Assembly (NCBI RefSeq): GCF_003334305.1
Contig: NZ_QOWS01000001.1
Direction: 5' to 3' (one strand)
From: Escherichia coli
GTDB taxonomy: Bacteria > Pseudomonadota > Gammaproteobacteria > Enterobacterales > Enterobacteriaceae
DNA: 64,000 nucleotides
Shown here: positions 17,928 through 50,715 of the stretch, in pieces
How positions within the stretch are numbered: the first letter of the stretch is position 1
How the letters are laid out: each line of letters begins with the position of its first letter
Made by a program: the position numbers and the translations under genes
The notes under the pieces: model-generated
Seen by the model: only the letters and a program-made list of their open reading frames with translations
The model's database searches: none
Told to the model about the DNA's origin: nothing

Positions 17928-18061
17928 CAACCAAACGACTCGGGGTGCCCTTCTGCGTGAAGGCTGAGAAATACCCGTATCACCTGATCTGGATAATGCC
18001 AGCGTAGGGAAGTCACGGACCACCAGGTCATTGCTTCTTCACGTTATGGCAGGAGCAAACT
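17928..18061 (+). promoter_or_regulatory. TPP (THI-box) riboswitch in the thiM 5' UTR
   Basis: Sequence CGGGGTGCCCTTCTGCGTGAAGGCTGAGAAATACCCGTATCACCTGATCTGGATAATGCCAGCGTAGGGAA matches the thiM aptamer; the downstream segment overlaps GGAGCAAACTATG (SD and start). Confidence 0.9.
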
Positions 18062-31628: not shown

Positions 31629-32408
31629 ATGACGATGAATTCATTCGAGCGAAGGAATAAGATCATCCAATTAGTGAATGAACAGGGAACCGTGCTTGTT
31701 CAGGATCTGGCGGGAGTATTTGCTGCCTCGGAAGCGACAATCCGTGCCGATTTGCGCTTTCTCGAACAAAAAGGCGTGGTTACGCGCTTTCATGGCGGTG
31801 CGGCGAAAATAATGTCCGGTAATAGTGAAACCGAGACCCAGGAAGTCGGGTTTAAAGAGCGATTTCAGCTCGCCAGCGCGCCGAAAAACAGAATAGCGCA
31901 GGCGGCAGTCAAAATGATCCATGAAGGGATGACCGTTATTCTCGACAGCGGAAGTACCACAATGCTTATCGCCGAAGGATTAATGACCGCCAAAAATATC
32001 ACGGTGATTACCAACAGTCTCCCGGCTGCGTTTGCCCTTTCCGAAAATAAAGACATTACTCTGGTCGTCTGCGGTGGCACGGTCCGCCATAAAACGCGAT
32101 CTATGCATGGATCTATTGCTGAACGTTCCCTGCAGGATATTAATGCCGATTTAATGTTTGTCGGTGCTGATGGTATTGATGCGGTTAATGGTATTACGAC
32201 CTTTAATGAAGGTTATTCGATTAGCGGTGCGATGGTCACCGCCGCTAATAAAGTGATTGCCGTTCTCGATTCATCGAAATTTAACCGTCGCGGTTTTAAT
32301 CAGGTACTGCCAATCGAAAAAATTGACATTATTATTACCGATGATGCTGTATCAGAGGTGGATAAACTGGCATTGCAGAAGACACGGGTAAAATTAATTA
32401 CGGTGTAG
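31629..32408 (+). CDS. gatR: DeoR-family repressor of the galactitol operon, uninterrupted
   Basis: 259-aa continuous ORF with N-terminal HTH (RRNKIIQLVNEQGTVLVQDLAGVFAASEATIRADLRFLE) and C-terminal DeoR sugar-binding-like region. Confidence 0.85.
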   Translation: MTMNSFERRNKIIQLVNEQGTVLVQDLAGVFAASEATIRADLRFLEQKGVVTRFHGGAAKIMSGNSETETQEVGFKERFQLASAPKNRIAQAAVKMIHEGMTVILDSGSTTMLIAEGLMTAKNITVITNSLPAAFALSENKDITLVVCGGTVRHKTRSMHGSIAERSLQDINADLMFVGADGIDAVNGITTFNEGYSISGAMVTAANKVIAVLDSSKFNRRGFNQVLPIEKIDIIITDDAVSEVDKLALQKTRVKLITV

Positions 32409-33803: not shown

Positions 33804-34121
33804 ATGAAAAAGATAGCTGCTATATCATTAATTAGTATTTTTATTATGTCTGGTTGTGCTGTGCATAATGATGAGACAAGTATCGGTAAATTTGGTCTTG
33901 CATATAAAAGTAATATTCAGCGTAAACTCGATAACCAATACTACACCGAAGCCGAAGCTTCTTTAGCCAGGGGCAGAATATCTGGTGCAGAAAATATAGT
34001 AAAAAATGATGCAGCCCATTTCTGTGTTACTCAGGGCAAAAAAATGCAGATAGTTGACCTGAAGACAGAAGGTGCAGGATTACATGGCGTCGCTCGTCTG
34101 ACATTCAAATGTGGAGAGTGA
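33804..34121 (+). CDS. yegR: Small lipoprotein
   Basis: 105 aa from MKKIAAISLISIFIMSGCAVHN (lipobox SGC) after GGAAGGTGAG; last host gene before attL. Confidence 0.75.
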   Translation: MKKIAAISLISIFIMSGCAVHNDETSIGKFGLAYKSNIQRKLDNQYYTEAEASLARGRISGAENIVKNDAAHFCVTQGKKMQIVDLKTEGAGLHGVARLTFKCGE

Positions 34122-34279
34122 GAATATTTTTTGGTAAGCGTCAAACATGCGCGTTCTGGTTGTGCTTAGCCGGAACCTGTGCGAGCACGATGCCGTTACG
34201 TGAAAGGCATCGTGCTATGAAGGGAGATTCTATCGATGTGGTCAATGGAAGACGGTGACCAGGGATAGGGCTTATGCAT

Positions 34280-34306
34280 AAAAAATAAGCCCGTGTAAGG
34301 GAGATT
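34280..34306. mobile_element. P2-type att core (attL) at the prophage left junction
   Basis: AAAAAATAAGCCCGTGTAAGGGAGATT matches my recollection of the 27-bp P2 attachment core; lies about 80 bp outside the int stop. Confidence 0.75.
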
Positions 34307-34385
34307 TAGGGTGTCACCAGTAGGGGCTTTCAACGGTACAATGCGGGTTTGAGCGGCATAAATTACCACTGAAAGCCCTTAAACG

Positions 34386-35399
34386 TTACTCTACTGTGGA
34401 CACTGTGTGGACACTCTCGGCCTCAGTACCACCTCTTAGCGGATTAAGAGAAATGGCGTCCTGAAGGTACTCTGGCGCAAAATGAGCGTAAACCATAGTT
34501 TGCTCAATCCGCGTGTGACCTAGTATCCGTTGTAGCGTGATAATACTTCCTCCATTAATCATGAAATGAGTGGCAAAGCTGTGCCTTAGTGCATGTGTGG
34601 CTTGCCCCATTGGCAAATCCGGTTTTATTGCTTTCATTGTTCGTCTGAAGCGAGGGTAATCAGCATCAGGGAATAAAAAACCTCGTTTGTTATCCGCGAT
34701 CATTTTGGCAACAGCCTCTGAGATCGGGACGGTGCGTGGTTTGTTTGTTTTCGTTTTAACAAACGTGACGCGGTTATGGATGATATTTTCTGCTTTCAAA
34801 CGAGCTGCTTCTCCCCAACGTGCTCCTGTACTCAGGCAAAGAATCGCAATCTTTTTATTGTCGCCGTCAAGTGCTGCAAGCAGTAAGGCAATTTCTTCCT
34901 GTGTTAGATAGCCTGTTTCTGGTTTTTCCTCCTTAAGCCTTTTTGTCCCTCTGATAGGGTGCTCACCAAAGAATAACTCCGCTTCAATCAGGGCTGTAAA
35001 CATGCCGCTAATACATGTTAAATCACGATTGATACTCGAAGGTTTAATACCCTGACTTCTTCGGGTGGCGCAGTACTGGCTGATAAGCGATTTCGTAATT
35101 TGAAATGCGCATGGGTCATTCGTTATTTTTGTGAAGATTTCAATTTTTCCAAGATTAGATTTCCCATGCTCTTCGTGTTTACCCTTTAAATCCCACCAGA
35201 TCTGTGTCAGCTCCGACAGACGTCGCTTGTCTGTTGGTTTTGATAGCCATTCTTTATTGTGGTGGTTGTACAACGTGTATTTCTCGAAAGCGACAGCTTC
35301 GCTTTTCTTATCAAACTTCCTACGGATGCGTTTTCCATTACGTCCAGTAGGGCGGATGTCCACTTCATATCGACCATCATCGAGTTTTTTGATTGCCAT
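34386..35399 (-). CDS. int: P2-like prophage integrase (tyrosine recombinase)
   Basis: 337 aa; C-terminal HALRHSFATHF...LGHTRIEQTMVYAHF catalytic box. Confidence 0.92.
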   Translation of the reverse strand: MAIKKLDDGRYEVDIRPTGRNGKRIRRKFDKKSEAVAFEKYTLYNHHNKEWLSKPTDKRRLSELTQIWWDLKGKHEEHGKSNLGKIEIFTKITNDPCAFQITKSLISQYCATRRSQGIKPSSINRDLTCISGMFTALIEAELFFGEHPIRGTKRLKEEKPETGYLTQEEIALLLAALDGDNKKIAILCLSTGARWGEAARLKAENIIHNRVTFVKTKTNKPRTVPISEAVAKMIADNKRGFLFPDADYPRFRRTMKAIKPDLPMGQATHALRHSFATHFMINGGSIITLQRILGHTRIEQTMVYAHFAPEYLQDAISLNPLRGGTEAESVHTVSTVE

Positions 35400-35514
35400 C
35401 AGAAAACCCTCCGAGTGGTGTGTTTTTTTGCGACTACTAATCGCTTTTTTCGTGGTGGCTGAAATTTAGCCACCAATAGTAGGCACTTGTGATGAATATA
35501 TTCACGATGAATTG

Positions 35515-35814
35515 TTAACCAGTCTTTTGACCGGAGTGGGGCGACGTTGTTTCGTTTTGCCCAAAGTGTGCGAGAGCGGGCGCAATTTGCCCGGACTCAG
35601 GAGCGATCTGATTGGTCATGAACCATAAAGTGTATTTGGTGAATTGTGGGGTCTGCAGGATGTTCATCATGACATCTGTTGGAGGTGTTGAACGACCACT
35701 TTCATAGTAACTCAGCGTGCCATACGGAACCCCTGTTAAATCAGCAAGTTGTTGTCTGCTCAAATACTCTGATTTTCGCATTAAGACTATCTTCTCGCTT
35801 ATCGTGTTTGACAT
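35515..35814 (-). CDS. C: P2-like immunity repressor C
   Basis: 99 aa with HTH (LSRQQLADLTGVPYGTLSYYESGRS); divergent from cox. Confidence 0.88.
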   Translation of the reverse strand: MSNTISEKIVLMRKSEYLSRQQLADLTGVPYGTLSYYESGRSTPPTDVMMNILQTPQFTKYTLWFMTNQIAPESGQIAPALAHFGQNETTSPHSGQKTG

Positions 35815-35928
35815 GGTGTTTAGATCTCAATAGTATTTAGTTTAGATGTAGATTGTTTAGTGCTTGGATGTGGGCACTAAAAGGCATTATAAGACATTAA
35901 ACGCAATTCATGAGGGCTAGAGGACGAC
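35815..35928. promoter_or_regulatory. Divergent early/immunity promoter-operator region (Pe/Pc) with direct repeats
   Basis: Direct repeats GTTTAGAT at 35818-35825 and 35840-35847 (22 bp centre to centre) plus further TTTAG copies, between C and cox. Confidence 0.6.
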
Positions 35929-36204
35929 ATGAGCAAGCAAGTAACACTCATGACTGATGCGATTCCTTATCAGGAGTTCGCAAAACTAATAGGAAAATCG
36001 ACAGGAGCGGTTCGTCGGATGATCGATAAAGGAAAGCTGCCTGTAATTGATATGACCGATCCACAATCAGCTTCAGGTCGTGCAGGTGAATATTGGGTAT
36101 ACCTTCCGGCATGGAATAACGGACTAAAACTGGCTTATGAAAGCCGCCCTAAAGAGATTCGTGACGGCTGGTTGATGTGGTTAGGTCTCGGTGAACCACG
36201 TTAA
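35929..36204 (+). CDS. cox: P2-like Cox (excisionase / repressor of Pc)
   Basis: 91 aa; first gene of the early rightward operon. Confidence 0.85.
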   Translation: MSKQVTLMTDAIPYQEFAKLIGKSTGAVRRMIDKGKLPVIDMTDPQSASGRAGEYWVYLPAWNNGLKLAYESRPKEIRDGWLMWLGLGEPR

Positions 36205-36214
36205 GGAGAACCGT

Positions 36215-36385
36215 ATGAATGAGCCTCGTTGTATTGCTCAGTTACTGCGTAACGAAAGCCCCAGGGCGATTGACTTCACCATCACCCACGGTAAGGGGCG
36301 TAAGGGAATCATTATCCGCACCAAAAAACAGAGTCCGTTAAAAAAGGCTCTGACCTTTCTGAAAAGCCGGAGGGTATGGAAATGA
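36215..36385 (+). CDS. Small early protein (P2 orf78-like)
   Basis: ATG after AAGGAG; position between cox and B. Confidence 0.5.
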   Translation: MNEPRCIAQLLRNESPRAIDFTITHGKGRKGIIIRTKKQSPLKKALTFLKSRRVWK

Positions 36386-36882
36386 CAGTGATGACGCTCA
36401 ATCTCGTTGAAAAACAGCCAGCAGCTATGCGCCGGATAATTGGTAAGCATCTTGCCGTTCCTCGCTGGCAGGATACATGTGATTATTATAATCAGATGAT
36501 GGAGCGCGAACGGTTAACGGTTTGCTTCCATGCTCAGTTAAAACAGCGTCACGCAACGATGTGTTTTGAAGAAATGAACGACGTCGAACGTGAACGACTG
36601 GTATGTGCAATTGATGAATTGCGTGGTGCATTCTCAAAACGCCGTCAGGTTGGCGCAAGTGAGTATGCATATATTAGTTTTTTAACAGTCAGTCAGCGTC
36701 GTACTTTATTTATGCATGCCGGATTGACTGAAAAAGAATTCAACCAGCCATACTGGCGAATTAATGAAGAGTCATGTTACTGGCGTGATGCTTTATTCCG
36801 TGCATTACGTGAATTATTCAGTCTGTTTGAGTATGCACCGACAATTCTGACGTCGGTAAAACCGGAGCAATATCTGCATTAA
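36376..36882 (+). CDS. B: P2-like replication gene B protein
   Basis: 168 aa, position between cox and A. Confidence 0.75.
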   Translation: MEMTVMTLNLVEKQPAAMRRIIGKHLAVPRWQDTCDYYNQMMERERLTVCFHAQLKQRHATMCFEEMNDVERERLVCAIDELRGAFSKRRQVGASEYAYISFLTVSQRRTLFMHAGLTEKEFNQPYWRINEESCYWRDALFRALRELFSLFEYAPTILTSVKPEQYLH

Positions 36883-36945
36883 GTAATTAACCAGAGTTTT
36901 TAACGCACTTAATTGTGCGGGGCTTCTTTTTGCCTGGAGAAAGTT

Positions 36946-37170
36946 ATGCATACAGTTTCTGAAAATCAGTGCGGTATATACGCATTACTGCTGCAACAGG
37001 CCAGAACCGAAGCACAGGCCGACGCTGCGACGCGCTTTTCTTCTCATCTTGATGCCATGATTCGCCACATCACAAAGGCGGAGTTATCCCGCGTGGAGAT
37101 AGTCGAGCTGCTCAGTCAGGAGTCGGAAAAATTTCACAATATCGGATTGTCTCGCGGGGAGGTGCTTTGA
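36946..37170 (+). CDS. Small early protein (P2 orf80-like)
   Basis: About 74 aa from MHTVSENQ after GGAGAAAG. Confidence 0.5.
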
Positions 37171-37472
37171 TGTTCTGTTCTCGTGCAGTTGTATTACTGA
37201 ATAACGCCTTAAAAATCGCCGTTATGAAAAATGGCGATTTGTCTCTTATTCAACTTGGTCTTGATAAAGAAAAACGCGAAATAACTGAATCTGTTATCGC
37301 GATTTATCAGAGTGAATTAAACCTCCTGTCTGATGTGGTCAATTTACTTGTTAAACGCGCTGTATTTCACAAGCAAATTTCCTCCGTGGATGAACTGACG
37401 AAATTAACGACAGAAATCGCCAGCTATTGCGCTGATGAATTTAAAAAACTGAACGACAAAAGGAACTGGTAA
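37167..37472 (+). CDS. Small early protein (P2 orf81-like)
   Basis: 101-aa ORF, 4-bp overlap with upstream gene. Confidence 0.5.
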
Positions 37473-37696
37473 TGCCGGACAACGTAGATTTTATTCAGGA
37501 ACAACAGGCTGAATTACTGGAGCGCCAGATTAACGCGGCAAGGGTAAAACATTGCGGTGCTTCTGCGCTGGTTTGCGAAGAGTGTGACGCGCCAATACCT
37601 GCTGCCCGTCGTGCGGCTTACCCGTCAGCCACGCGTTGTGTTTCCTGTCAGTCAGTCTTTGAAGCAAAAAACAAACATTACCGGAGAACGGCATGA
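37472..37696 (+). CDS. TraR/DksA-type C4 zinc-finger protein (P2 orf82-like)
   Basis: CGASALVCEECDAPIPAARRAAYPSATRCVSC four-cysteine motif. Confidence 0.7.
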   Translation: MPDNVDFIQEQQAELLERQINAARVKHCGASALVCEECDAPIPAARRAAYPSATRCVSCQSVFEAKNKHYRRTA

Positions 37697-37968
37697 GTAT
37701 TCGTATTGAAATTGGCGAACGTTATGTCGTTACCAGTGACAGCTTTCAGTTTATTCTCCACGAGAAAAAGAGAGCGGAAAGCGGTAAAAACGCCGGTCAG
37801 GAATGGCTGGCGGTGGTTGGTTATTACCCGAAATTAAGCCAGCTCGTTTCAGGCCTGATGCATCACGATATTCTGACCGGAAGCGCAAAGTCTTTTGCTG
37901 ATTTAAACGTGCAGGTTGAGCAACTCAGCAAGCGTTGTTCAGAGGCTTTTGGCTCATATGGCCGTTAA
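37693..37968 (+). CDS. Small early protein (P2 orf83-like)
   Basis: 91-aa ORF overlapping the start of A. Confidence 0.5.
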   Translation: MSIRIEIGERYVVTSDSFQFILHEKKRAESGKNAGQEWLAVVGYYPKLSQLVSGLMHHDILTGSAKSFADLNVQVEQLSKRCSEAFGSYGR

Positions 37969-40243
37969 AGCCTCCGGGCGTTTTGTCCCTCCGTCAGCAT
38001 TTGCCGCAGGCACCGGTAAGATGTTTACCGGTGCTTATGCATGGAACGCGCCACGCGAGGCCGTCGGGCGCGAAAGACCCCTTACACGTGACGAGATGCG
38101 TCAGATGCAAGGTGTTTTATCCACGATTAACCGCCTGCCTTACTTTTTGCGCTCGCTGTTTACTTCACGCTATGACTACATCCGGCGCAATAAAAGCCCG
38201 GTGCACGGGTTTTATTTCCTCACATCCACTTTTCAGCGTCGTTTATGGCCGCGCATTGAGCGTGTGAATCAGCGCCATGAAATGAACACCGACGCGTCGT
38301 TGCTGTTTCTGGCAGAGCGTGACCACTATGCGCGCCTGCCGGGAATGAATGACAAGGAGCTGAAAAAGTTTGCCGCCCGTATCTCATCGCAGCTTTTCAT
38401 GATGTATGAGGAACTCAGCGATGCCTGGGTGGATGCACATGGCGAAAAAGAATCGCTGTTTACGGATGAGGCGCAGGCTCACCTCTATGGTCATGTTGCT
38501 GGCGCTGCACGTGCTTTCAATATTTCCCCGCTTTACTGGAAAAAATACCGTAAAGGACAGATGACCACGAGGCAGGCATATTCTGCCATTGCCCGTCTGT
38601 TTAACGATGAGTGGTGGACTCATCAGCTCAAAGGCCAGCGTATGCGCTGGCATGAGGCGTTACTGATTGCTGTCGGGGAGGTGAATAAAGACCGTTCTCC
38701 TTATGCCAGTAAACATGCCATTCGTGATGTGCGTGCACGCCGCCAGGCAAATCTGGAATTTCTTAAATCGTGTGACCTTGAAAACAGGGAAACCGGCGAG
38801 CGCATCGACCTTATCAGTAAGGTGATGGGCAGTATTTCTAATCCTGAAATTCGCCGGATGGAGCTGATGAACACCATTGCCGGTATTGAGCGTTACGCCG
38901 CCGCAGAGGGTGATGTGGGGATGTTTATCACGCTTACCGCGCCTTCAAAGTATCACCCGACACGTCAGGTCGGAAAAGGCGAAAGTAAAACCGTCCAGCT
39001 AAATCACGGCTGGAACGATGAGGCATTTAATCCAAAGGATGCGCAGCGTTATCTCTGCCATATCTGGAGCCTGATGCGCACGGCATTCAAAGATAATGAT
39101 TTACAGGTCTACGGTTTGCGTGTCGTCGAGCCACACCACGACGGAACGCCGCACTGGCATATGATGCTTTTTTGTAATCCACGCCAGCGTAACCAGATTA
39201 TCGAAATCATGCGTCGCTATGCGCTCAAAGAGGATGGCGACGAAAGAGGAGCCGCGCGAAACCGTTTTCAGGCAAAACACCTTAACCAGGGCGGTGCTGC
39301 GGGGTATATCGCGAAATACATCTCAAAAAACATCGATGGCTATGCACTGGATGGTCAGCTCGATAACGATACCGGCAGACCGCTGAAAGACACTGCTGCG
39401 GCTGTTACCGCATGGGCGTCAACGTGGCGCATCCCACAATTTAAAACGGTTGGTCTGCCGACAATGGGGGCTTACCGTGAACTACGCAAATTGCCTCGCG
39501 GCGTCAGCATTGCTGATGAGTTTGACGAGCGCGTCGAGGCTGCACGCGCCGCCGCAGACAGTGGTGATTTTGCGTTGTATATCAGCGCGCAGGGTGGGGC
39601 AAATGTCCCGCGCGATTGTCAGACTGTCAGGGTCGCCCGTAGTCCGTCGGATGAAGTTAACGAGTACGAGGAAGAAGTCGAGAGAGTGGTCGGCATTTAC
39701 GCGCCGCATCTCGGCGCGCGTCATATTCATATCACCAGAACGACGGACTGGCGCATTGTGCCGAAAGTTCCGGTCGTTGAGCCTCTGACTTTAAAAAGCG
39801 GCATCGCCGCGCCTCGGAGTCCTGTCAATAACTGTGGAAAGCTCACCGGTGGTGATACTTCGTTACCGGCTCCCACACCTTCTGAACACGCCGCAGCAGT
39901 GCTTAATCTGGTTGATGACGGTGTTATCGAATGGAATGACCCGGAGGTCGTGAGGGCGCTCAGGGGCGCATTAAAATACGGGCTGAGAACACCAAATCGT
40001 CAGCAGAGAAACGGAAGCCCGTTAAAACCACATGAAATTGCACCATCGGCCAGACTGACCCGGTCGGAAAGAATGCAAATTACCCGTATCCGCGTTGACC
40101 TTGCTCAGAACGGTATCAGGCCGCAGCGATGGGAGCTTGAGGCGCTGGCGCGTGGCGCGACCGTAAATTATGACGGGAAAAAATTCACGTATCCGGTCGC
40201 TGATGAGTGGCCGGGATTCTCAACAGTAATGGCGCGGATATAA
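37958..40243 (+). CDS. A: P2-like replication initiation endonuclease A (rolling-circle)
   Basis: About 761 aa from MAVKASGRF; HxH-type motif TPHWHMMLF and tyrosine pair GYIAKYISK. Confidence 0.9.
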   Translation: MAVKASGRFVPPSAFAAGTGKMFTGAYAWNAPREAVGRERPLTRDEMRQMQGVLSTINRLPYFLRSLFTSRYDYIRRNKSPVHGFYFLTSTFQRRLWPRIERVNQRHEMNTDASLLFLAERDHYARLPGMNDKELKKFAARISSQLFMMYEELSDAWVDAHGEKESLFTDEAQAHLYGHVAGAARAFNISPLYWKKYRKGQMTTRQAYSAIARLFNDEWWTHQLKGQRMRWHEALLIAVGEVNKDRSPYASKHAIRDVRARRQANLEFLKSCDLENRETGERIDLISKVMGSISNPEIRRMELMNTIAGIERYAAAEGDVGMFITLTAPSKYHPTRQVGKGESKTVQLNHGWNDEAFNPKDAQRYLCHIWSLMRTAFKDNDLQVYGLRVVEPHHDGTPHWHMMLFCNPRQRNQIIEIMRRYALKEDGDERGAARNRFQAKHLNQGGAAGYIAKYISKNIDGYALDGQLDNDTGRPLKDTAAAVTAWASTWRIPQFKTVGLPTMGAYRELRKLPRGVSIADEFDERVEAARAAADSGDFALYISAQGGANVPRDCQTVRVARSPSDEVNEYEEEVERVVGIYAPHLGARHIHITRTTDWRIVPKVPVVEPLTLKSGIAAPRSPVNNCGKLTGGDTSLPAPTPSEHAAAVLNLVDDGVIEWNDPEVVRALRGALKYGLRTPNRQQRNGSPLKPHEIAPSARLTRSERMQITRIRVDLAQNGIRPQRWELEALARGATVNYDGKKFTYPVADEWPGFSTVMARI

Positions 40244-40599
40244 TGACAAAGATTCACAAAGTAAAGCTGCACGCAAGATATTTCAACCTTGTGCTGGAGG
40301 AAAAAGAAACGCACAGAATTTAGGGGGATAGCCGTTATCATGTGTATGAAGCACTTGAAATGTATCTGCATCACTTGGGAGTGTGTCAACGGGGAATTTC
40401 CATCTATGTGATTTTTTGAGAGCAATGCAGTGAAGATAAAGATACTTATTATAAATCAATGTGATAGATGGTGCCTCGCAAACGTAAATGATAGTTTTGA
40501 AGCTTCAGGGCTGATGTCGTTCATAAGACTATGTTTACGCTATCATTTATGATAAAAATAATTAATTTTTATCATAAAGATTCAACAGAGGATATGTTG

Positions 40600-42105
40600 A
40601 TGAATCAACTAAAATCAATGAATATCAATAAGTTACTTTTGGATGTTGATAACCCTCGTTTCCCGACGTCAGCAGAAAATCAGCGTGATGCTATTGCCAA
40701 GATGCTTGACTTGCAGTACGACCGCATTTATCGCTTGGCTAAAGATATTGCTTCGAAAGGTTTAGATCCGTCTGAAAACATATTAGTTTATCCTAGTGAA
40801 GAGGAATCTGGCTTTTTCGTCGTTGCTGAAGGTAATCGTCGAGTTACAGCCCTTAAACTTTTACACTCTCCTAGACTTGCACCAACAGAAAAAGCACGGA
40901 AAGCTTTTGAAAAACTTAAGATTACTCAGCTTAAAGATATTAATGTTATAGATAACTGCGTTCTTTTTGACGATGATGAATATGAGCATTGGGTCAATTT
41001 AAAGCATACTGGTCAAAATGCTGGAGTTGGAAGAGTTGAATGGACTGCAACAGAAAAAGCACGACATCTGGCTAGGATGGGTAAGCAGTCATTTGGTAAT
41101 CAAATACTTACATTTATAGAGTTCAATACTGATTTATATAAAGAGATAATTGCTAAAAAAAGACTTTTAAAAATCACAAACATCACGCGTCTTTTTGGTG
41201 ATTTAAAGGTGAGGGATTATTTTAATTTAAAAAGCATTAATGGAGTTCTATACTCATATCAGCCTTATGAACGTTTTTGTGCACAATTAAAAAATATTTT
41301 AGATGTAATGATTGAAGAGGATGATAAAGGTAAGGCTTGTTTTACTGTTAATAGGATTCGTAGCCAAGATGACAGGGTTACATTTATTATTGAACAAAAA
41401 ATAAAACCTTCAGAATCTCTTTTAGATAAGCCGTGGAGTTTATTAGAGCCTAAATCTTTTCTTACAGAGAAAAAACATGATTCTATTGACAAAAATGATG
41501 CATCTGTGAGTGTAAAGAAAGCAGGTCTTTCAGAAGGTGATGCCTTAAAGAATACAGGTGTGGATAAACAGGAAGATGATTATTCTAGACATGTAGGCAC
41601 AGAAGAGAGTAAATCTAAAGTTTCGGGTACGGAACAGAATAAAAACAAGGGAAAAACTCCTCCTAAAGTAGATCGTAATGTGTTGGTGCCATCTTATGTG
41701 AAATTTAATTTTAGAGGGCATAAGAAATGCTCTAGAATATTTAATGAGCTTAAGTCGCATCTGACATTTGATAACACCCCTAATGCTATCTCAATATTGT
41801 TGAGAATATTTATAGATCTCTCTGTAAGCACTTTTGTTGAAGAAAACAAGTTACAATTTAAGGAACCACATAGAACTCCAGGGCTTCATGATAAGGTTAA
41901 AATGTGTGCTAATTTCCTTCGGGAAAATAAAAAGATGACGGGGAGTCAATGTACGGCTGTAATAACTTTCTCGAGCCAAATAACTAAACATGATGGTTCA
42001 TTGCAGCAGTATGTACATAACCCACACTTAATTCCCTCAAAAGAGGCTGTCAACACTGAGTGGGATAACTTTGAGTTGTTATTAAGCCTTATTTGGAGTG
42101 AGTGA
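40600..42105 (+). CDS. ParB/Srx-fold domain protein with disordered Lys/Ser/Glu-rich linker and uncharacterised C-terminal domain (cargo gene 1)
   Basis: ORF 40531-42105 (524 aa); likely start at 40600 (GAGGA seven nt upstream). N-terminus has DVDNPRF and VVAEGNRRVTALKLL, matching ParB box motifs; conspicuously AT-rich against the flanking phage genes. Confidence 0.7.
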   Translation: MNQLKSMNINKLLLDVDNPRFPTSAENQRDAIAKMLDLQYDRIYRLAKDIASKGLDPSENILVYPSEEESGFFVVAEGNRRVTALKLLHSPRLAPTEKARKAFEKLKITQLKDINVIDNCVLFDDDEYEHWVNLKHTGQNAGVGRVEWTATEKARHLARMGKQSFGNQILTFIEFNTDLYKEIIAKKRLLKITNITRLFGDLKVRDYFNLKSINGVLYSYQPYERFCAQLKNILDVMIEEDDKGKACFTVNRIRSQDDRVTFIIEQKIKPSESLLDKPWSLLEPKSFLTEKKHDSIDKNDASVSVKKAGLSEGDALKNTGVDKQEDDYSRHVGTEESKSKVSGTEQNKNKGKTPPKVDRNVLVPSYVKFNFRGHKKCSRIFNELKSHLTFDNTPNAISILLRIFIDLSVSTFVEENKLQFKEPHRTPGLHDKVKMCANFLRENKKMTGSQCTAVITFSSQITKHDGSLQQYVHNPHLIPSKEAVNTEWDNFELLLSLIWSE

Positions 42106-42174
42106 GATTTGTCTACATCTGGACATGGATGTCCAGAAACTGATAAACTACAAAATCAGGAATGAGAGGGATTT

Positions 42175-43059
42175 ATGAAATTTTATACTCCATTAAGATA
42201 CCCCGGCGGGAAAGGTAAGTTATCTTACTTTTTAAAAGATGTTATTGAAAAAAACTCGTTGAATGATGGAGCATATGCAGAACCTTACGCTGGTGGTGCA
42301 GGGGTGGCTTTAGAATTATTATTGGAAGAGTATGTCCGTAAAATCTATATAAATGATGCAGATTTTGCTGTTTATTCTTTTTGGTCATCTGTTGTTAGTG
42401 ATACTGATGAGCTTTGCCGACTTATTAGCCGAGCAAAGATAGATATGGATGAATGGTCTTTTCATCGCTATGTTATTTCGAATCCTTCTGAGTTTACTAA
42501 GCTTGAGGTTGGCTTTGCTGCGTTTTTCTTAAATAGAACAAATCGTTCAGGTATTCTCAAGGCGGGGGTTATAGGCGGGAAATCACAAAATGGAAAATGG
42601 AAAATGGATGTTCGCTTTAACAGGGCGGATTTAATTTCAAGAATTGAGAAGATAGCAAATTATAATCAAAGAATAGTAGTAACTAATCTGGATGCTTTGG
42701 ATTTTCTTGATGTCTTGAATTTTATGGATAATATGGGAAAGGTGGATAAAAATAAAATTCTTTTGTATTTGGATCCTCCTTACTATATTAAAGGGCAAGG
42801 GCTTTACAGGAATTTTTATGAGCATGATGATCATGTATTGGTTATGAAGAAACTCACAGAAATTAATTTCCCAAATTGGCTTGTTTCTTATGATAACGCT
42901 AAGGAAATTAAAGATATTTATAATGGATTTCCGCAAGTTGAGTATTCATTGCAATATACAGCGCATCTCAAAAAATCTGGAGAGGAAGTGATGATTTTTT
43001 CTCCTGAAATAATTATTCCTAATACCCTGAAAGGGGGCTCAATGCCAACTTGCGCCTGA
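42175..43059 (+). CDS. Dam-family (D12 class) N6-adenine DNA methyltransferase (cargo gene 2)
   Basis: 294 aa; motifs collinear with E. coli Dam: YPGGKGK (Dam WAGGK), EPYAGGAGV (Dam EPFVGAGSV), FFLNRTNRSG (Dam LYLNRYGYNG) and DPPYY (residues about 200-204); AT-rich. Confidence 0.85.
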   Translation: MKFYTPLRYPGGKGKLSYFLKDVIEKNSLNDGAYAEPYAGGAGVALELLLEEYVRKIYINDADFAVYSFWSSVVSDTDELCRLISRAKIDMDEWSFHRYVISNPSEFTKLEVGFAAFFLNRTNRSGILKAGVIGGKSQNGKWKMDVRFNRADLISRIEKIANYNQRIVVTNLDALDFLDVLNFMDNMGKVDKNKILLYLDPPYYIKGQGLYRNFYEHDDHVLVMKKLTEINFPNWLVSYDNAKEIKDIYNGFPQVEYSLQYTAHLKKSGEEVMIFSPEIIIPNTLKGGSMPTCA

Positions 43060-43206
43060 TTTTACTTATTTTTTGTCAGTAAGTAATTAGTTTGGTGCAT
43101 TTATTTGCATTCATTTTTAAATGCCAGTTCTGGTATCTAACATCAGTGCTGGCGCATTCTAACCATTACTGCTGCACTGCATTTAAAGCCCTGCATGAAG
43201 CGGGCG

Positions 43207-43225
43207 GGCGAGGCGGGGAAAGCAC
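43207..43225. other. Phage cos site (19-nt cohesive-end sequence)
   Basis: GGCGAGGCGGGGAAAGCAC matches my recollection of the P2/186 cohesive end; lies between the cargo and portal gene Q. Confidence 0.75.
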
Positions 43226-43393: not shown

Positions 43394-44428
43394 TCAGCCG
43401 TTGTCAGTGTCCAGTGAGTAGTTTTTAAAGCGGATGACCTCCTGACCGAGCCAGCCGTTTATCTCGCGGATCCTGTCCTGTAACGGGATAAGCTCATTGC
43501 GGACAAAGACCTTTGCCACTTTCTCAATATCACCCAGCGACCCGACGTTCTCCGGCTTGCCCCCCATCAACTGAAAGGGGATGCGGTGCGCGTCCAGCAG
43601 GTCAGTGGCGCTGGCTTTTTTGATATTAAAAAAATCGTCCTTCGTCGCTACTTCACTGAGGGGGATAATTTTAATGCCGTCAGCTTTCCCCTGTGGCGCA
43701 TAGAGAAACAGATTTTTAAAGTTGTTGCGGCCTTTCGACTTAACCATGTTTTCGCGAAGCATTTCGATATCGTTGCGATCCTGCACGGCATCGGTGACGT
43801 ACATGATGTATCCGGCATGGGCGCCATTTTCGTAATACTTGCGGCGGAACAGCGTGGCCGACTCATTCAGCCAGGCAGAGTTAAGGGCGCTGAGATATTC
43901 CGGCAGGCCGTACAGCTCCTGATTAATATCCGGCTCCAGCAGGTGAAACACGGAGCCGGGCGCGAAAGGTGTCGGCTCATGGAAGGACGGCACCCACCAG
44001 TAAACATCCTCTTCCACGCCACGGCGGGTATATTTTGCCGGTGAGGTTTCCAGTCTGATGACCTTACCGGTGGTGCTGTAACGCTTTTCCAGAAACGCAT
44101 TACCGAACACCAGAAAATCCAGCACAAAGCGGCTGAAATCCTGCTGGGAAAGCCACGGATGCGGAATAAACGTTGAAGCCAGAATATTGCGTTTAACGTA
44201 AATCGGCGAGCTGTGATGCACGGCAGCACGCAGGCTTTTTGCCAGACCGGTAAAGCTGACCGGCGGCTCATACCATCTGCCGTTACTGATGCACTCGACG
44301 TAATCCAGAATGTCACGGCGGTCGAGTACCGGCACCGGCTCGCCAAAGGTGAATGCCTCCATTTTCGGGGCGCTGGCGGTCATTGTTTTTGCCGCAGGTT
44401 GCGGTGTTTTCCCTTTTTTCTTGCTCAT
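43394..44428 (-). CDS. Q: Portal protein
   Basis: 344 aa, P2 gpQ length and position. Confidence 0.9.
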   Translation of the reverse strand: MSKKKGKTPQPAAKTMTASAPKMEAFTFGEPVPVLDRRDILDYVECISNGRWYEPPVSFTGLAKSLRAAVHHSSPIYVKRNILASTFIPHPWLSQQDFSRFVLDFLVFGNAFLEKRYSTTGKVIRLETSPAKYTRRGVEEDVYWWVPSFHEPTPFAPGSVFHLLEPDINQELYGLPEYLSALNSAWLNESATLFRRKYYENGAHAGYIMYVTDAVQDRNDIEMLRENMVKSKGRNNFKNLFLYAPQGKADGIKIIPLSEVATKDDFFNIKKASATDLLDAHRIPFQLMGGKPENVGSLGDIEKVAKVFVRNELIPLQDRIREINGWLGQEVIRFKNYSLDTDNG

Positions 44429-46200
44429 CAGTAAAACTCCAGAATGGTGGATGTCAGCGGGGTGCTGATACCGGCGGTGAGTGGCTCATTTAACAGGGCG
44501 TGCATGGTCGCCCAGGCGAGGTCGGCGTGGCTGGCTTCCTCGCTGCGGCTGGCCTCATAGGTGGCGCTGCGCCCGCTGCTGGTCATGGTCTTGCGGATAG
44601 CCATAAACGAGCTGGTGATGTCGGTGGCGCTGACGTCGTATTCCAGGCAGCCACGGCGGATAACGTCTTTTGCCTTGAGCACCATTGCGGTTTTCATTTC
44701 CGGTGTGTAGCGGATATCGCGCGCGGCGGGATAGAACGAGCGCACGAGCTGGAACACGCCGACACCGAGGCCGGTGGCATCAATACCGATGTATTCGACG
44801 TTGTATTTTTCGGTGAGTTTGCGGATGGATTCCGCCTGAGTGGCAAAGTCCATGCCTTTCCACTGGTGACGCTCAAGTATTCTGAATTTGCCACCGGCCA
44901 CCACCGGCGGTGCCAGTACCACGCATCCGGCGCTGTCGCCACGGTGTGACGGGTCGTAACCAATCCATACCGGACGGGAGCCGAACGGATTCGCGGCAAA
45001 CGGCGCATAGTCTTCCCATTCTTCCAGCGTGTCGACCATGCAGCGTTGCAGCTCCTCGAACGGGAACACCGACGCCTTGTCGTCAACAAATTCACACATG
45101 AACAGGTTTTTAAAATCGTCGGCGCTGTTTTCACGTTTGAGCTGCTCAATGTCGAACAGCGTGCAGCCGCCTTTCAGGGCGTCCTCAATGGTGACAATCT
45201 GCCGCCACTGGCCGTCCGCACAGAGAAGACCTCCGGCAAGGGCGTTATGACTGACGTCGATTTCCACACGTTCGGCGGCGCTGGCGCGTCCCCGGTTGAA
45301 CAGTTCACCCGACCAGAACGGGTAGGCGTCGTGCGCCAGCGTGGACGGGGTGGAGAAATAGGTCGAGCGCAGGTGACTCTGTGAGGCCATACCTGATGCC
45401 ACCTTACGCAGTACCTGAAAATTCGGGATCCAGAAAATCTCGTCGACGTACAGGTCGCCGTTATGGCTCTGCGCGGTGTTGGAGTTGGTGCCGAGAAAAA
45501 TCAGTTTTGCGCCGTTATTGCCCAGGACAATCGGGTCACCGGTCAGGTCAACGTCAACCAGCCGGGCAAAGGCGATGATGTATTCGCGGAACACATACGC
45601 CTGCGTTTTACTGGCCGACAGAAAAATCTGGTTATGACCGGTTTTCAGGGCGCGCAGCAGCGCCTCGCGGGAAAAATAAAACGTCGCGCCAATCTGGCGG
45701 GATTTCAGGATATCGCGGATGCGGTGCTCAAGCCCGGCGCGATACCAGTGCAACTGATATTCGAAAGACTGCTCAAAGAAAATCTGCTCCAGCTTTTCGA
45801 TAGCCTCGTCGCTGAAAAAATTCTTTTTCGGTTTGCGCCGCCCGCCTTTGTTGCGGTTAGCGATGTTCGGATTAAGGTCTGCCTCGTTGCCGGTCTGGTT
45901 GTAGCGGTTTACCCGTGCCAGTCGTTCAATCTGGCGTCCGAGCAGGTCAATTTCCTTGAAGTCACCGCCGGTTTTCTGCGGTTTTATGATGAGCTGGGTC
46001 AGCCGCGCTTCCAGACTCATTTCGACACGGCTGATGGGGGCAACGCTGTCCCAGCCGTCGCGCTGTTTCCAGCTCTGCACCGTCGGGCGTTTCATCTGCA
46101 ACATGGCGGCAATCTGCGGCACGGAAAATCCCTGCCAGTACAGCAGCGCCGCCTGACGACGCGGGTCGTGTAAAAGAGTGGTGTCTGTGGTGATGGTCAT
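44428..46200 (-). CDS. P: Terminase large subunit (ATPase)
   Basis: About 590 aa from MTITTDTT within the 600-aa ORF; divergent from O. Confidence 0.9.
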   Translation of the reverse strand: MTITTDTTLLHDPRRQAALLYWQGFSVPQIAAMLQMKRPTVQSWKQRDGWDSVAPISRVEMSLEARLTQLIIKPQKTGGDFKEIDLLGRQIERLARVNRYNQTGNEADLNPNIANRNKGGRRKPKKNFFSDEAIEKLEQIFFEQSFEYQLHWYRAGLEHRIRDILKSRQIGATFYFSREALLRALKTGHNQIFLSASKTQAYVFREYIIAFARLVDVDLTGDPIVLGNNGAKLIFLGTNSNTAQSHNGDLYVDEIFWIPNFQVLRKVASGMASQSHLRSTYFSTPSTLAHDAYPFWSGELFNRGRASAAERVEIDVSHNALAGGLLCADGQWRQIVTIEDALKGGCTLFDIEQLKRENSADDFKNLFMCEFVDDKASVFPFEELQRCMVDTLEEWEDYAPFAANPFGSRPVWIGYDPSHRGDSAGCVVLAPPVVAGGKFRILERHQWKGMDFATQAESIRKLTEKYNVEYIGIDATGLGVGVFQLVRSFYPAARDIRYTPEMKTAMVLKAKDVIRRGCLEYDVSATDITSSFMAIRKTMTSSGRSATYEASRSEEASHADLAWATMHALLNEPLTAGISTPLTSTILEFY

Positions 46201-46373
46201 GAATACCTCGCCGTGATGAATACACGGCAAGGCTACTGAGTCGCGCCCCGCGATTCGCTAAGGTGCTGTTGTGTCAGTGATAAGCCATCCGGGACTGATG
46301 GCGGAGGATGCGCATCGTCGGGAAACTGATGCCGACATGTGACTCCTCTAATCACTATTCAGGACTCCTGACA

Positions 46374-47228
46374 ATGGCAAAAAAAGTCTCAAAATTCTTT
46401 CGTATCGGCGTTGAGGGTGACACCTGTGACGGGCGTGTCATCAGTGCGCAGGATATTCAGGAAATGGCCGAAACCTTTGACCCGCGAGTCTATGGTTGCC
46501 GCATTAACCTGGAACATCTGCGCGGCGTCCTGCCTGACGGTATTTTTAAGCGTTATGGCGATGTGGCCGAACTGAAGGCCGAAAAGATTGACGATGATTC
46601 GGCGCTGAAAGGCAAATGGGCGCTGTTTGCGAAAATCACCCCGACCGATGACCTTATCGCGATGAACAAGGCCGCGCAGAAGGTCTATACCTCAATGGAA
46701 ATTCAGCCGAACTTTGCCAATACCGGCAAATGTTATCTGGTGGGTCTGGCCGTCACCGATGACCCGGCAAGCCTCGGCACGGAATACCTGGAATTCTGCC
46801 GCACGGCAAAACACAACCCCCTGAACCGCTTCAAATTAAGCCCTGAAAACCTGATTTCAGTGGCAACGCCTGTTGAGCTGGAATTTGAAGACCTGCCTGA
46901 AACCGTGTTCACCGCCCTGACCGAAAAGGTGAAATCCATTTTTGGCCGCAAACAGGCCAGCGATGACGCCCGTCTGAATGATGTGCATGAAGCGGTGACC
47001 GCTGTTGCTGAACATGTGCAGGAAAAACTGAGTGCCACTGAGCAGCGCCTCGCTGAGATGGAAACCGCTTTTTCCGCACTTAAGCAGGAGGTGACTGACA
47101 GGGCGGATGAAACCAGCCAGGCATTCACCCGCCTGAAAAACAGTCTCGACCACACCGAAAGTCTGACCCAGCAGCGCCGCAGCAAGGCCACCGGAGGTGG
47201 CGGTGACGCCCTGATGACGAACTGCTGA
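46374..47228 (+). CDS. O: Capsid scaffolding protein
   Basis: 284 aa from MAKKVSKFF; coiled-coil-like C-terminus. Confidence 0.88.
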   Translation: MAKKVSKFFRIGVEGDTCDGRVISAQDIQEMAETFDPRVYGCRINLEHLRGVLPDGIFKRYGDVAELKAEKIDDDSALKGKWALFAKITPTDDLIAMNKAAQKVYTSMEIQPNFANTGKCYLVGLAVTDDPASLGTEYLEFCRTAKHNPLNRFKLSPENLISVATPVELEFEDLPETVFTALTEKVKSIFGRKQASDDARLNDVHEAVTAVAEHVQEKLSATEQRLAEMETAFSALKQEVTDRADETSQAFTRLKNSLDHTESLTQQRRSKATGGGGDALMTNC

Positions 47229-47286
47229 CCGGCGTCAGTCAGTCCGGGAAAACCTTCACGATTAACCCTTAATTTCAGGAAAAACT

Positions 47287-48360
47287 ATGCGCCAGGAAAC
47301 CCGTTTTAAATTTAATGCCTACCTGTCCCGTGTTGCCGAACTGAACGGCATCGACGCCGGTGATGTGTCGAAAAAATTCACCGTTGAACCGTCGGTCACC
47401 CAGACCCTGATGAACACCATGCAGGAGTCCTCTGACTTTCTGACCCGCATCAATATTGTGCCGGTCAGCGAAATGAAAGGGGAAAAAATTGGTATCGGTG
47501 TCACCGGCCCCATTGCCAGCACCACCGACACCGCAGGTGGCACCGAGCGTCAGCCGAAGGACTTCTCGAAGCTGGCGTCCAACAAGTACGAATGCGACCA
47601 GGTTAACTTCGATTTTTATATCCGCTACAAAACGCTGGACCTGTGGGCGCGTTATCAGGATTTCCAGCTCCGTATCCGTAACGCCATTATCAAACGCCAG
47701 TCCCTTGATTTCATCATGGCCGGTTTTAACGGCGTGAAGCGTGCCGAAACCTCTGACCGCAGCAGCAATCCGATGCTGCAGGATGTGGCGGTCGGCTGGT
47801 TGCAGAAATACCGCAATGAAGCCCCGGCGCGTGTGATGAGCAAGGTCACTGACGAGGAAGGCCGCACCACCTCTGAGGTTATCCGCGTGGGCAAGGGCGG
47901 TGATTATGCCAGCCTTGACGCACTGGTGATGGATGCGACCAACAACCTGATTGAGCCGTGGTATCAGGAAGACCCTGACCTTGTGGTGATTGTGGGACGT
48001 CAGTTACTGGCGGACAAGTATTTCCCCATCGTTAACAAGGAGCAGGACAACAGCGAAATGCTGGCCGCTGACGTCATCATCAGCCAGAAACGCATCGGTA
48101 ACCTGCCAGCGGTACGCGTCCCGTACTTCCCGGCGGATGCGATGCTCATCACGAAGCTGGAAAACCTGTCCATCTACTACATGGATGACAGCCATCGCCG
48201 CGTGATTGAGGAAAACCCGAAACTCGACCGCGTGGAGAACTACGAGTCAATGAACATTGATTACGTGGTGGAGGACTACGCCGCCGGTTGTCTGGTGGAA
48301 AAAATTAAAGTCGGTGATTTCTCCACACCGGCTAAAGCGACCGCAGAGCCGGGAGCGTAA
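47287..48360 (+). CDS. N: Major capsid protein
   Basis: 357 aa, P2 gpN length and position. Confidence 0.9.
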   Translation: MRQETRFKFNAYLSRVAELNGIDAGDVSKKFTVEPSVTQTLMNTMQESSDFLTRINIVPVSEMKGEKIGIGVTGPIASTTDTAGGTERQPKDFSKLASNKYECDQVNFDFYIRYKTLDLWARYQDFQLRIRNAIIKRQSLDFIMAGFNGVKRAETSDRSSNPMLQDVAVGWLQKYRNEAPARVMSKVTDEEGRTTSEVIRVGKGGDYASLDALVMDATNNLIEPWYQEDPDLVVIVGRQLLADKYFPIVNKEQDNSEMLAADVIISQKRIGNLPAVRVPYFPADAMLITKLENLSIYYMDDSHRRVIEENPKLDRVENYESMNIDYVVEDYAAGCLVEKIKVGDFSTPAKATAEPGA

Positions 48361-48363
48361 CCG

Positions 48364-49107
48364 ATGACGAGTCCCGCACAGCGCCACATGATGCGGGTCT
48401 CGGCAGCGATGACCGCGCAGCGGGAAGCCGCCCCGCTGCGACATGCAACTGTCTATGAGCAGATGCTGGTCAAGCTGGCCGCAGACCAGCGCACACTGAA
48501 AGCGATTTATTCAAAAGAGCTGAAGGCCGCGAAAAAACGCGAACTGCTGCCGTTCTGGTTGCCGTGGGTGAACGGCGTGCTGGAGCAGGGCAAAGGTGCA
48601 CAGGATGACATTCTGATGACAGTCATGCTGTGGCGTCTGGATACCGGCGATATTGCCGGTGCGCTGGAGATTGCCCGTTATGCCCTGAAATACGGTCTGA
48701 CCATGCCGGGTAAACACCGCCGCACCCCGCCGTACATGTTCACCGAGGAGGTGGCGCTTGCGGCCATGCGCGCTCACGCTGCCGGTGAGTCTGTGGATCC
48801 CCGCCTGCTGACGGACACCCTTGAACTGACCGCCACGGCTGACATGCCTGATGAAGTGCGCGCAAAGCTGCACAAAATCACCGGTCTGTTTCTGCGTGAC
48901 GCTGGTGATGCCGCAGGGGCGCTGGCACACCTGCAAAGTGCGACACAGCTCGACTGTCAGGCCGGCGTCAAAAAAGAGATTGAACGACTGGAGCGGGAGC
49001 TGAAACCGAAGCCGGAGCCGCAGCCCAAAGCGGCCACCCGCGCCCCGCGTAAGACCCGGAGCGTGACACCGGCAAAACGTGGACGCCCGAAAAAGAAAGC
49101 CAGTTAA
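48364..49107 (+). CDS. M: Terminase small subunit
   Basis: 247 aa; basic C-terminal tail. Confidence 0.88.
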   Translation: MTSPAQRHMMRVSAAMTAQREAAPLRHATVYEQMLVKLAADQRTLKAIYSKELKAAKKRELLPFWLPWVNGVLEQGKGAQDDILMTVMLWRLDTGDIAGALEIARYALKYGLTMPGKHRRTPPYMFTEEVALAAMRAHAAGESVDPRLLTDTLELTATADMPDEVRAKLHKITGLFLRDAGDAAGALAHLQSATQLDCQAGVKKEIERLERELKPKPEPQPKAATRAPRKTRSVTPAKRGRPKKKAS

Positions 49108-49206
49108 CAACCGAATGCGCCCCGCGCCAGGGCGGCACGCCGGTCAGTGTGGGTGAATCACCTGACACTGTTCCGGCGTCCACCGCCCGACTTTTCTGAG
49201 GTAGTC

Positions 49207-49716
49207 ATGATGACGCTGATTATTCCGCGAAAGGAGGCTCCCGTGTCCGGTGAGGGTACGGTGGTCATCCCGCAACCGGCAGGCGACGAGCCGGTGATTA
49301 AAAACACGTTCTTTTTTCCCGATATCGACCCGAAGCGCGTCCGGGAACGTATGCGCCTTGAGCAGACCGTCGCCCCCGCCCGTCTGCGTGAGGCCATCAA
49401 GTCAGGCATGGCGGAGACGAATGCGGAGCTGTACGAGTACCGCGAACAGAAAATTGCCGCCGGTTTTACGCGTCTGGCTGACGTCCCGGCAGACGATATC
49501 GACGGTGAAAGCATCAAGGTTTTTTACTACGAGCGCGCCGTGTGTGCGATGGCGACCGCGTCGCTTTATGAGCGTTATCGCGGCGTGGATGCCAGTGCGA
49601 AAGGCGACAAGAAGGCCGACAGCATTGACAGCACCATTGATGAACTGTGGCGGGATATGCGCTGGGCGGTGGCGCGTATCCAGGACAAGCCGCGCTGCAT
49701 CGTGAGTCAAATCTGA
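49207..49716 (+). CDS. L: Capsid completion protein
   Basis: About 169 aa from MTLIIPRKEAP; stop overlaps the X start codon. Confidence 0.85.
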   Translation: MMTLIIPRKEAPVSGEGTVVIPQPAGDEPVIKNTFFFPDIDPKRVRERMRLEQTVAPARLREAIKSGMAETNAELYEYREQKIAAGFTRLADVPADDIDGESIKVFYYERAVCAMATASLYERYRGVDASAKGDKKADSIDSTIDELWRDMRWAVARIQDKPRCIVSQI

Positions 49717-49919
49717 TGAAGACCTTTGCGCTACAGGGCGACACGCTCGACGCCATTTGTGTCCGGTATTACGGGCGCACTGAGGGCGTGGTTGAGACTG
49801 TGCTCGCCGCAAATCCGGGACTGGCTGAACTGGGGGCGATGCTGCCACACGGCACCGCCGTCGAACTGCCCGACGTTCAGACCGCGCCCGTGGCTGAAAC
49901 TGTCAATCTGTGGGAGTAA
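49716..49919 (+). CDS. X: Tail protein X
   Basis: 67 aa from MKTFALQGDTLDAICVRYYG. Confidence 0.85.
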   Translation: MKTFALQGDTLDAICVRYYGRTEGVVETVLAANPGLAELGAMLPHGTAVELPDVQTAPVAETVNLWE

Positions 49920-49922
49920 CGC

Positions 49923-50204
49923 ATGACAGCAGAAGAAAAAAGCGTCCTGTCGCTTTTCATGATTGGGGTGCTGATTGTTGTCGGCAAGGTGCTTGCCGGT
50001 GGTGAACCCATCACCCCGCGTCTGTTTATCGGGCGCATGTTGCTCGGTGGTTTTGTCTCGATGGTTGCCGGTGTTGTTCTGGTGCAGTTTCCTGACCTGT
50101 CACTGCCTGCGGTGTGCGGCATCGGCTCCATGCTGGGTATCGCCGGTTATCAGGTGATTGAGATTGCCATTCAGCGCCGCTTTAAGGGCAGGGGGAAACC
50201 GTAA
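49923..50204 (+). CDS. Y: Holin
   Basis: 93 aa with transmembrane segments and charged C-terminus. Confidence 0.85.
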   Translation: MTAEEKSVLSLFMIGVLIVVGKVLAGGEPITPRLFIGRMLLGGFVSMVAGVVLVQFPDLSLPAVCGIGSMLGIAGYQVIEIAIQRRFKGRGKP

Positions 50205-50701
50205 TGCCGGTAATTAACACGCATCAGAATATCGCCGCCTTTCTCGACATGCTGGCGGTATCCGAAGGGACGGCGAATCATCCGCTGACGAAAAACCGTG
50301 GCTATGACGTGATAGTCACCGGACTGGACGGGAAGCCGGAAATTTTCACCGACTACAGTGACCACCCGTTCGCGCATGGCCGACCGGCGAAGGTGTTTAA
50401 CCGTCGCGGTGAAAAATCCACGGCCTCCGGTCGCTATCAGCAGCTTTACCTGTTCTGGCCGCATTACCGCAAACAGCTTGCCCTGCCGGATTTCAGTCCG
50501 CTGTCACAGGACAGACTTGCCATTCAGTTGATCCGCGAACGCGGTGCACTGGATGACATCCGGGCGGGACGCATTGAGCGCGCCATTTCACGCTGTCGCA
50601 ATATCTGGGCGTCCCTGCCGGGTGCCGGTTACGGTCAGCGTGAGCATTCACTGGAAAAACTGGTCACCGTCTGGCGTACCGCTGGCGGCGTACCGGCTTA
50701 A
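50204..50701 (+). CDS. K: Endolysin
   Basis: 165 aa, P2 gpK length and position. Confidence 0.88.
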   Translation: MPVINTHQNIAAFLDMLAVSEGTANHPLTKNRGYDVIVTGLDGKPEIFTDYSDHPFAHGRPAKVFNRRGEKSTASGRYQQLYLFWPHYRKQLALPDFSPLSQDRLAIQLIRERGALDDIRAGRIERAISRCRNIWASLPGAGYGQREHSLEKLVTVWRTAGGVPA

Positions 50702-50715
50702 ACGGAGTAAACACC

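Follow-up and report, generated by a model that had tools for sequence, protein, structure and literature searches.

Integration of bacteriophage P2 at the cyaR site of Escherichia coli, the remnant of a P2 prophage in K-12 and the cargo hotspots of P2 are all established, and full P2 prophages at the cyaR site are both common and already published. We take this site to be locI, the preferred site of P2 in E. coli C, and the K-12 remnant was reportedly described by Barreiro and Haggard-Ljungquist in 1992. In strain MG1655 the remnant, known as PR-X, consists of ogrK and the yegZ fragment of D and lies between cyaR and yegR. Table 2 of PMC3032704 gives the “cyaR RNA” as the place where Wphi2 is inserted in E. 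coli W, ogr-D' in K-12 and P2*B in E. coli B. Wphi2 and P2*B share with the prophage described here both the insertion site and the phage type, and they apparently differ from it in their cargo and tail-fibre alleles.

Coliphage 186 (Eganvirus) shares the general P2-like layout of the structural and replication genes, but a long CI, Apl, CII and a LexA-controlled tum operon set it apart. In contrast to 186, P2 is not induced by the SOS response, as stated in the passage of 10.1101/850248 that cites Christie and Calendar 2016. P2-like prophages are documented to have a defence hotspot that lies between the genes for the replication endonuclease and the portal (PMC9519451, PMC9122126), and PD-lambda-5 is an experimentally validated, broad anti-phage system that has been read as compact and RM-plus-Abi-like (PMC9519451).

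Here we describe such an element in a stretch of 64,000 nt of an E. coli genome (contig NZ_QOWS01000001.1, assembly GCF_003334305.1), which is called the window throughout. As a natural P2 lysogen at the canonical site it is ordinary, and its kind has been well described already. The sequence between yegR and int is very probably an attL of the form B-core-P', the left junction of an intact P2 prophage of 30,842 bp at the preferred E. coli site, the 3' end of cyaR. A first-pass annotation of the same DNA, made from its letters, had already proposed a complete and probably inducible P2-like prophage beside yegR.

A P2 gene set in P2 order

When compared with P2 (Peduovirus P2, NC_001895 / AF063097) by blastn, the window shows three colinear blocks (Table 1), circularly permuted as expected for an integrated P2, and the best matches among 50,697 phage records were P2 and its near relatives. 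This comparison with the P2 reference genome, which the first-pass annotation had recommended, revealed 100% nucleotide identity over the first 4.4 kb (window 34279-38656, P2 24355-28732), a segment that spans the Cox boxes, the P' arm, int, C, Pe/Pc, cox and B. The nucleotide identity is 97-99% across some 80% of what was compared. The gene order is also that of P2: int-C-cox-B-A-(cargo)-cos-Q-P-O-N-M-L-X-Y-K-lysABC-R-S-orf30-V-W-J-I-H-G-FI-FII-E-T-U-D. It had been stated that this order runs complete from int to D within the window, which is right as regards the order; as regards completeness it is not, because only 148 of the 387 codons of D (63557-64000) lie inside, the gene being cut by the window end.

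The right end was read from the source contig (QOWS01000001.1, GCA_003334305.1; stretch L005), which shows 0 mismatches over 17,993 nt to window 46008-64000. This contig came from an exact-protein look-up of the tail fibre H and is almost certainly the source, the window corresponding to its positions 224,001-288,000. As had been anticipated, ogr and attR follow beyond the window. The full D encodes 387 aa and ogr 72 aa, the first 100% identical to P2 gpD and the second 100% identical to its P2 counterpart, and the segment formed by the ogr terminator, P arm, IHF site and core is identical to P2 24255-24382 at 128 of 128 positions. The second copy of the 27-bp core, for which the first-pass annotation had advised looking and whose absence downstream of D and ogr it had named as refuting its proposal, is found at the window-equivalent positions 65122-65148 (L005 19115-19141), about 1.1 kb past the window end, and is followed immediately by the body of cyaR and then by yegQ.

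A tblastn search with all 42 P2 proteins, with D and ogr taken from the source contig, found all essential P2 genes present and full length at 93.6-100% amino acid identity, with the exceptions of H, I and the replaced G; together with the P2 gene order, this bears out the proposal of a complete P2-like prophage. The identity to P2 is 100% for Int, C, Cox, Orf78, B and Orf80-83 and 99.3% for A, whilst Q, P, O, N, M, L, X, Y, K, R, S, V, W, J, FI, FII, E, T and U range from 97.6 to 100% and the lysA, lysB and lysC products from 93.6 to 95%. The cis-acting sites are equally well kept: the ori nick region and the 19-nt cos are identical to P2, as are two terminators and the activator sites at pO/pP and pV, and the slippery GGTTTTTTG at E/E' is conserved. 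In the same search, four P2 genes that are not essential, orf91, tin, old and fun(Z), were missing or replaced in the prophage. An ORF at 53431-53817 on the minus strand, which overlaps the start of V and has no family match, was treated as spurious.

Outside the prophage, the window holds an intact gatR (31629-32408), encoding the DeoR-family repressor of the galactitol operon, a gene that is split by IS3E in K-12 MG1655. There is also a TPP riboswitch at 17931-18027 (Rfam RF00059, 71.2 bits) upstream of thiM-thiD, a standard feature of E. coli.

Table 1. Features of the attL region and of the prophage, in window coordinates.
Feature	Position	Strand	Evidence
yegR, lipoprotein gene, attL-flanking chromosomal gene	33804-34121	+	annotated yegR at the homologous position in E. 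coli A7 and K-12
B arm, chromosomal flank from yegR to core	34122-34279		same flank in K-12; contiguous with core and cyaR in 4207 empty-site genomes
attL core, 27 bp	34280-34306	+	identical to P2 attP core; identical to last 27 nt of cyaR on the - strand
Cox-binding region of att site	34323-34396		nucleotide-identical to protein_bind feature P2 24399-24472
P' arm, Int arm-type sites, two TGTGGACAC repeats, overlapping int 3' end	34394-34420		identical to P2 24470-24496
int, tyrosine integrase	34386-35399	-	337/337 aa identical to P2 Int
C, immunity repressor, 99 aa, P2 type	35515-35814	-	99/99 aa identical to P2 C
Pe/Pc switch, operators O1 and O2	35808-35911		identical to P2 25884-25987; Pe -35/-10 also found by promoter scan
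cox, excisionase and Pc repressor	35929-36204	+	91/91 aa identical to P2 Cox
Early operon orf78, B, orf80-83, A	36215-40243	+	orf78-orf83 100% aa, A 99.3%
A, replication endonuclease	37958-40243	+	ori nick region 39796-39836, nick +-20 nt identical to P2
PD-lambda-5 gene A	40531-42105, likely start near 40600	+	PADLOC PD-Lambda-5_A, 5.9e-168
PD-lambda-5 gene B, adenine methyltransferase	42175-43059	+	PADLOC PD-Lambda-5_B, 2.6e-121
cos, 19-nt cohesive end GGCGAGGCGGGGAAAGCAC	43207-43225	+	identical to P2 cosL/cosR, flanks conserved
Q (portal, 344 aa, intact) and P (terminase large subunit)	43394-46200	-	98.8% and 99.5% aa, full length
O operon O, N, M, L, X, Y, K, lysA, lysB, lysC, R, S	46374-52574	+	93.6-100% aa, full length
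orf30, non-essential P2 gene	52646-53431	-	98.5% aa to P2 Orf30; phrog_2407
V operon V, W, J, I, H, tail-fibre assembly gene	53515-58097	+	V/W/J 97.6-99.1%, I (baseplate) 81.7%
H, divergent C-terminus	56008-57687	+	58.7% over 404 aa; 559 aa versus 669 aa in P2
Tail-fibre assembly gene, 144 aa, in place of P2 G	57663-58097	+	tail-fibre assembly PHROGs
F operon FI, FII, E (with E' slippery site), T, U, start of D	58418-64000	+	98-100% aa
Block colinear with P2 24355-30396	34279-40321		99.3% identity (blastn)
Block colinear with P2 1-12623	43207-55830		97.4% identity (blastn)
Block colinear with P2 17522-23234	58294-64000		96.9% identity (blastn)

Departures from P2 and integrity of the prophage

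The prophage differs from P2 in its cargo, in the absence of fun(Z), in the exchange of the H C-terminus and of G, in a diverged pF and in its size, 30.8 kb against 33.6 kb. The cargo consists of two adjacent genes with full-length PADLOC matches to PD-lambda-5 A and B, located between A (end 40243) and Q (start 44428). They replace the orf91, tin and old genes of P2 in this gpA-gpQ slot, and blastn found no P2 match over 40322-43206. On the strength of these profile matches, the cargo is assigned to the known PD-lambda-5 defence system, which belongs to known biology. A stub of orf91, 23 codons long, is left at 40240-40308.

The tail-fibre module has been swapped relative to P2 over 55831-58417, and P2 G gave no tblastn match in the prophage. 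The H protein is encoded in identical form on 3 contigs, according to an exact-protein look-up. As for the pF region, it has diverged from P2 but keeps the TGT-N12-CCA dyad, whose retention was the sole criterion by which this variant was judged. Within H there is also a direct repeat of about 240 nt (56520-56757 versus 56651-56889, 82% identity), and E. coli A7 has one extra repeat unit in H compared with the window.

A7 is the nearest complete genome, 99.7-99.9% identical, with the same layout and both core copies; in a megablast search of window 39100-64000 against complete E. coli genomes, one record only reached at least 99% identity, presumably A7. The portal gene of this sibling prophage (L001 28571-29604) is annotated as frameshifted, the rest of the prophage being otherwise 99.9% identical, which could be either early decay or a sequencing error. 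Taken as annotated, the frameshift means that decay occurs in the lineage. In the window, unlike in the A7 annotation, Q (43394-44428) is an intact ORF of 344 aa.

These departures bear on the alternative of a cryptic prophage, in which a lesion that is invisible as a broken ORF, such as the divergent pF, an incompatible tail-fibre module or a missense change, would block phage production. We regard this as unlikely. Relatives of the prophage do decay, as seen in the portal annotation of A7 and in K-12, where only a remnant is left, and in the present case pF differs from P2, the H C-terminus and G are replaced and the genome is 2.75 kb shorter than that of P2. However, the essential ORFs are full length and 93.6-100% identical outside the tail-fibre module, H and G were replaced by intact genes, and there is no difference from P2 in cos, ori or the att arms. 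Moreover, the same pF and tail-fibre variants recur elsewhere, as with the H protein shared by the three contigs, and isolated P2-like phages of 29-31 kb exist, such as S164 (30,272 bp) and pro483 (29,237 bp). An intact P2 prophage remains the reading that we prefer.

Immunity and expected behaviour

The prophage is of the P2 immunity type, with the 99-aa C, the O1 and O2 operators at Pe and the face-to-face Pe and Pc promoters. From the biology of P2, we infer that it is viable, regulated in the manner of P2 and non-inducible. The C repressor, acting at Pe, would keep the prophage silent and maintain lysogeny, excision would require both Int and Cox, and Ogr would switch on the late operons. 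Phage release would then be only spontaneous and of low frequency, and the prophage would otherwise be stable. Since the immunity and switch region is nucleotide-identical to that of P2, SOS non-inducibility is to be expected.

The first-pass annotation had instead called the prophage “probably inducible”, a reading that implies a 186-type element, derepressed during the SOS response by a LexA-controlled antirepressor. The completeness of the prophage agrees with it, and some P2-like phages are indeed inducible, among them 186, whose record annotates a LexA site, p95 and tum. The evidence from the prophage itself nevertheless makes it highly improbable: its repressor is the P2 C at 100% identity, the Pe/Pc operators, cox and int are those of P2, and P2 itself is, as mentioned above, not SOS-inducible. 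The 186 Tum and CI proteins gave only chance-level matches by tblastn (E of at least 0.02 over 25-62 aa), no CTGT-N8-ACAG LexA box occurs in the 30.9-kb prophage, the LexA consensus had no match in the window, and the gpA-gpQ slot, which in 186 is that of tum, is filled here by PD-lambda-5. As the CI, Apl, CII and tum of 186 are all absent from the window prophage, it should not be credited with the inducibility of that phage, and the claim of inducibility is not upheld.

The attachment junctions and the cyaR gene

The attL core, AAAAAATAAGCCCGTGTAAGGGAGATT, occurs as a single copy in the window, at 34280-34306 on the plus strand; no further match was found in the window when up to 3 mismatches were allowed, and 0 were found in 100 shuffles. 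The same 27 nt are annotated in P2 as the attP core (NC_001895 24356-24382). The neighbouring ORF is P2 Int, which places the end of the core 79 nt from the int stop codon, in agreement with the figure of about 80 bp given in the earlier annotation. The interval 34122-34385 corresponds exactly to the yegR-int intergenic region, as yegR ends at 34121 and gives, from the ATG at 33804, the annotated protein of 105 aa. In the source contig, and in A7 too, the 27-bp core is a direct repeat at both ends of the element.

The notion that the 27-mer beside int is merely the phage's own attP-derived sequence, a chance match or an assembly join, for which one could invoke the single copy seen in the window, is ruled out for practical purposes, because chromosomal sequence lies to the left of the core and runs into cyaR in 4207 empty-site genomes, P2 sequence lies to its right, second core copies are present in the source contig and in A7, and the same junction is found in 812 independent complete genomes.

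The first-pass annotation had missed that the attachment site is the 3' end of a small RNA gene, cyaR, in the yegQ-cyaR-yegR interval, and also how commonly full P2 prophages occupy it. In the Rfam alignment, the core corresponds to the loop, the 3' stem strand and the U-tail of the CyaR terminator, whose hairpin folds. Because the phage brings in a sequence identical to the final 27 nt of cyaR, the gene is intact at attR and a 27-nt orphan stands at attL. The intact CyaR at attR, which overlaps the core, matches Rfam RF00112 with 100.7 bits over model positions 1-85 of 85 in both the source contig and A7. At attL, a permissive Rfam search (E <= 10) of 33900-34600 gave no match, as a 27-nt cyaR fragment is undetectable on its own. 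Between yegP and yegQ, a ParD/ParE toxin-antitoxin pair is present in the source strain (L005 20750-21344) and in A7 (L001 5516-6110), and absent from the same interval of K-12.

A synthetic empty site of 147 nt, made of the yegR-side flank of the window plus the core joined to the cyaR side, is contiguous as a B-core-B' junction in 4207 of 5426 complete E. coli genomes, in many of them at 100% identity, which establishes a clean site-specific insertion. The occupied form, with the yegS-yegR-int junction, was found in 812 of the 5426 (~15%). On the model of P2, the insertion would have arisen through recombination between the core of the phage attP and its identical counterpart in the chromosome, carried out by Int, a tyrosine recombinase, together with IHF. 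In the IMG/VR set (L007-L106), a few prophages with the same yegR-side junction continue into non-P2 sequence after AAAAAATAAGCCCGTGTAAGGG (e.g., ...AGGGCGTTTATATACCC), which indicates that other P2-like att/integrase types also use the 3' end of cyaR.

Comparison with K-12 places both elements at one attachment site. The sequence of K-12 confirms that, as the first-pass annotation had stated, its site by yegR holds a cryptic P2 remnant made up of ogrK and a D fragment, and the identity of the two sites, also proposed there, holds as well: the same yegR-side flank, the attR side, cyaR and ogr are found in both. They differ in that only some 630 bp are left in PR-X, owing to a deletion that runs from inside the attL core into D, whereas the window prophage is whole; the K-12 core breaks off after AAAAAAATAAGCCCGTGTA, at which point D sequence begins (AAAAAAATAAGCCCGTGTA joined to gcag).

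A putative P-arm relic in the chromosomal flank

The B arm contains, at 34232-34262, a sequence TCGATGTGGTCAATG-GAAGACGGTGACCAG that aligns, as a degenerate copy, with the Int-binding region of the P2 P arm, TCGATGTGGTCAATGTGTGGAC-GTGACCAG, in the same orientation as in P2 and at 47 nt from the core, versus 63 nt in P2. The local alignment has a score of 38; shuffled sequences gave a mean of 14.6 (sd 2.2), and 0 out of 2000 reached 38. Ahead of this putative relic stands AAGGGAGATT, equal to the last 10 nt of the core, at 34220-34229. The flank that bears both is part of the conserved empty site.

In IMG/VR, a 23-mer of the relic was present on 100 contigs, nearly all of them after yegR and 0 preceded by ogr; a phage-borne arm was rejected as its source, these being cases of host flank captured in prophage predictions. 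The whole 158-nt flank, searched against the 50,697 phage records (blastn “distant”, E <= 10), matched only records that bear host flank, and a weak match to 186 (E 0.5) was judged to be due to chance. A 46-mer of core plus cyaR was found in genome contigs at 4 loci only (two in Kluyvera ascorbata, one in E. coli E69 and one in a contaminated MAG), which say nothing about the origin of the relic. The simplest reading of the resemblance to a P arm, which we put forward tentatively and with the balance of our judgement leaning against it, is that the “empty” cyaR/locI site conserved across E. coli might be the fossil attR of an older P2-type prophage.

Implications

If the fossil attR were real, the CyaR terminator would be a phage-supplied sequence, and the retained arm-type site might help to make cyaR the preferred site of P2. 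As regards the annotation of this locus, no response to mitomycin C or UV is to be expected from the prophage, and its site is to be described as the 3' end of an sRNA gene, one that insertion leaves intact. As the strain harbours an intact P2 at the canonical cyaR site, it is likely to be immune to P2, to be able to help P4-like satellites and to be equipped with PD-lambda-5.
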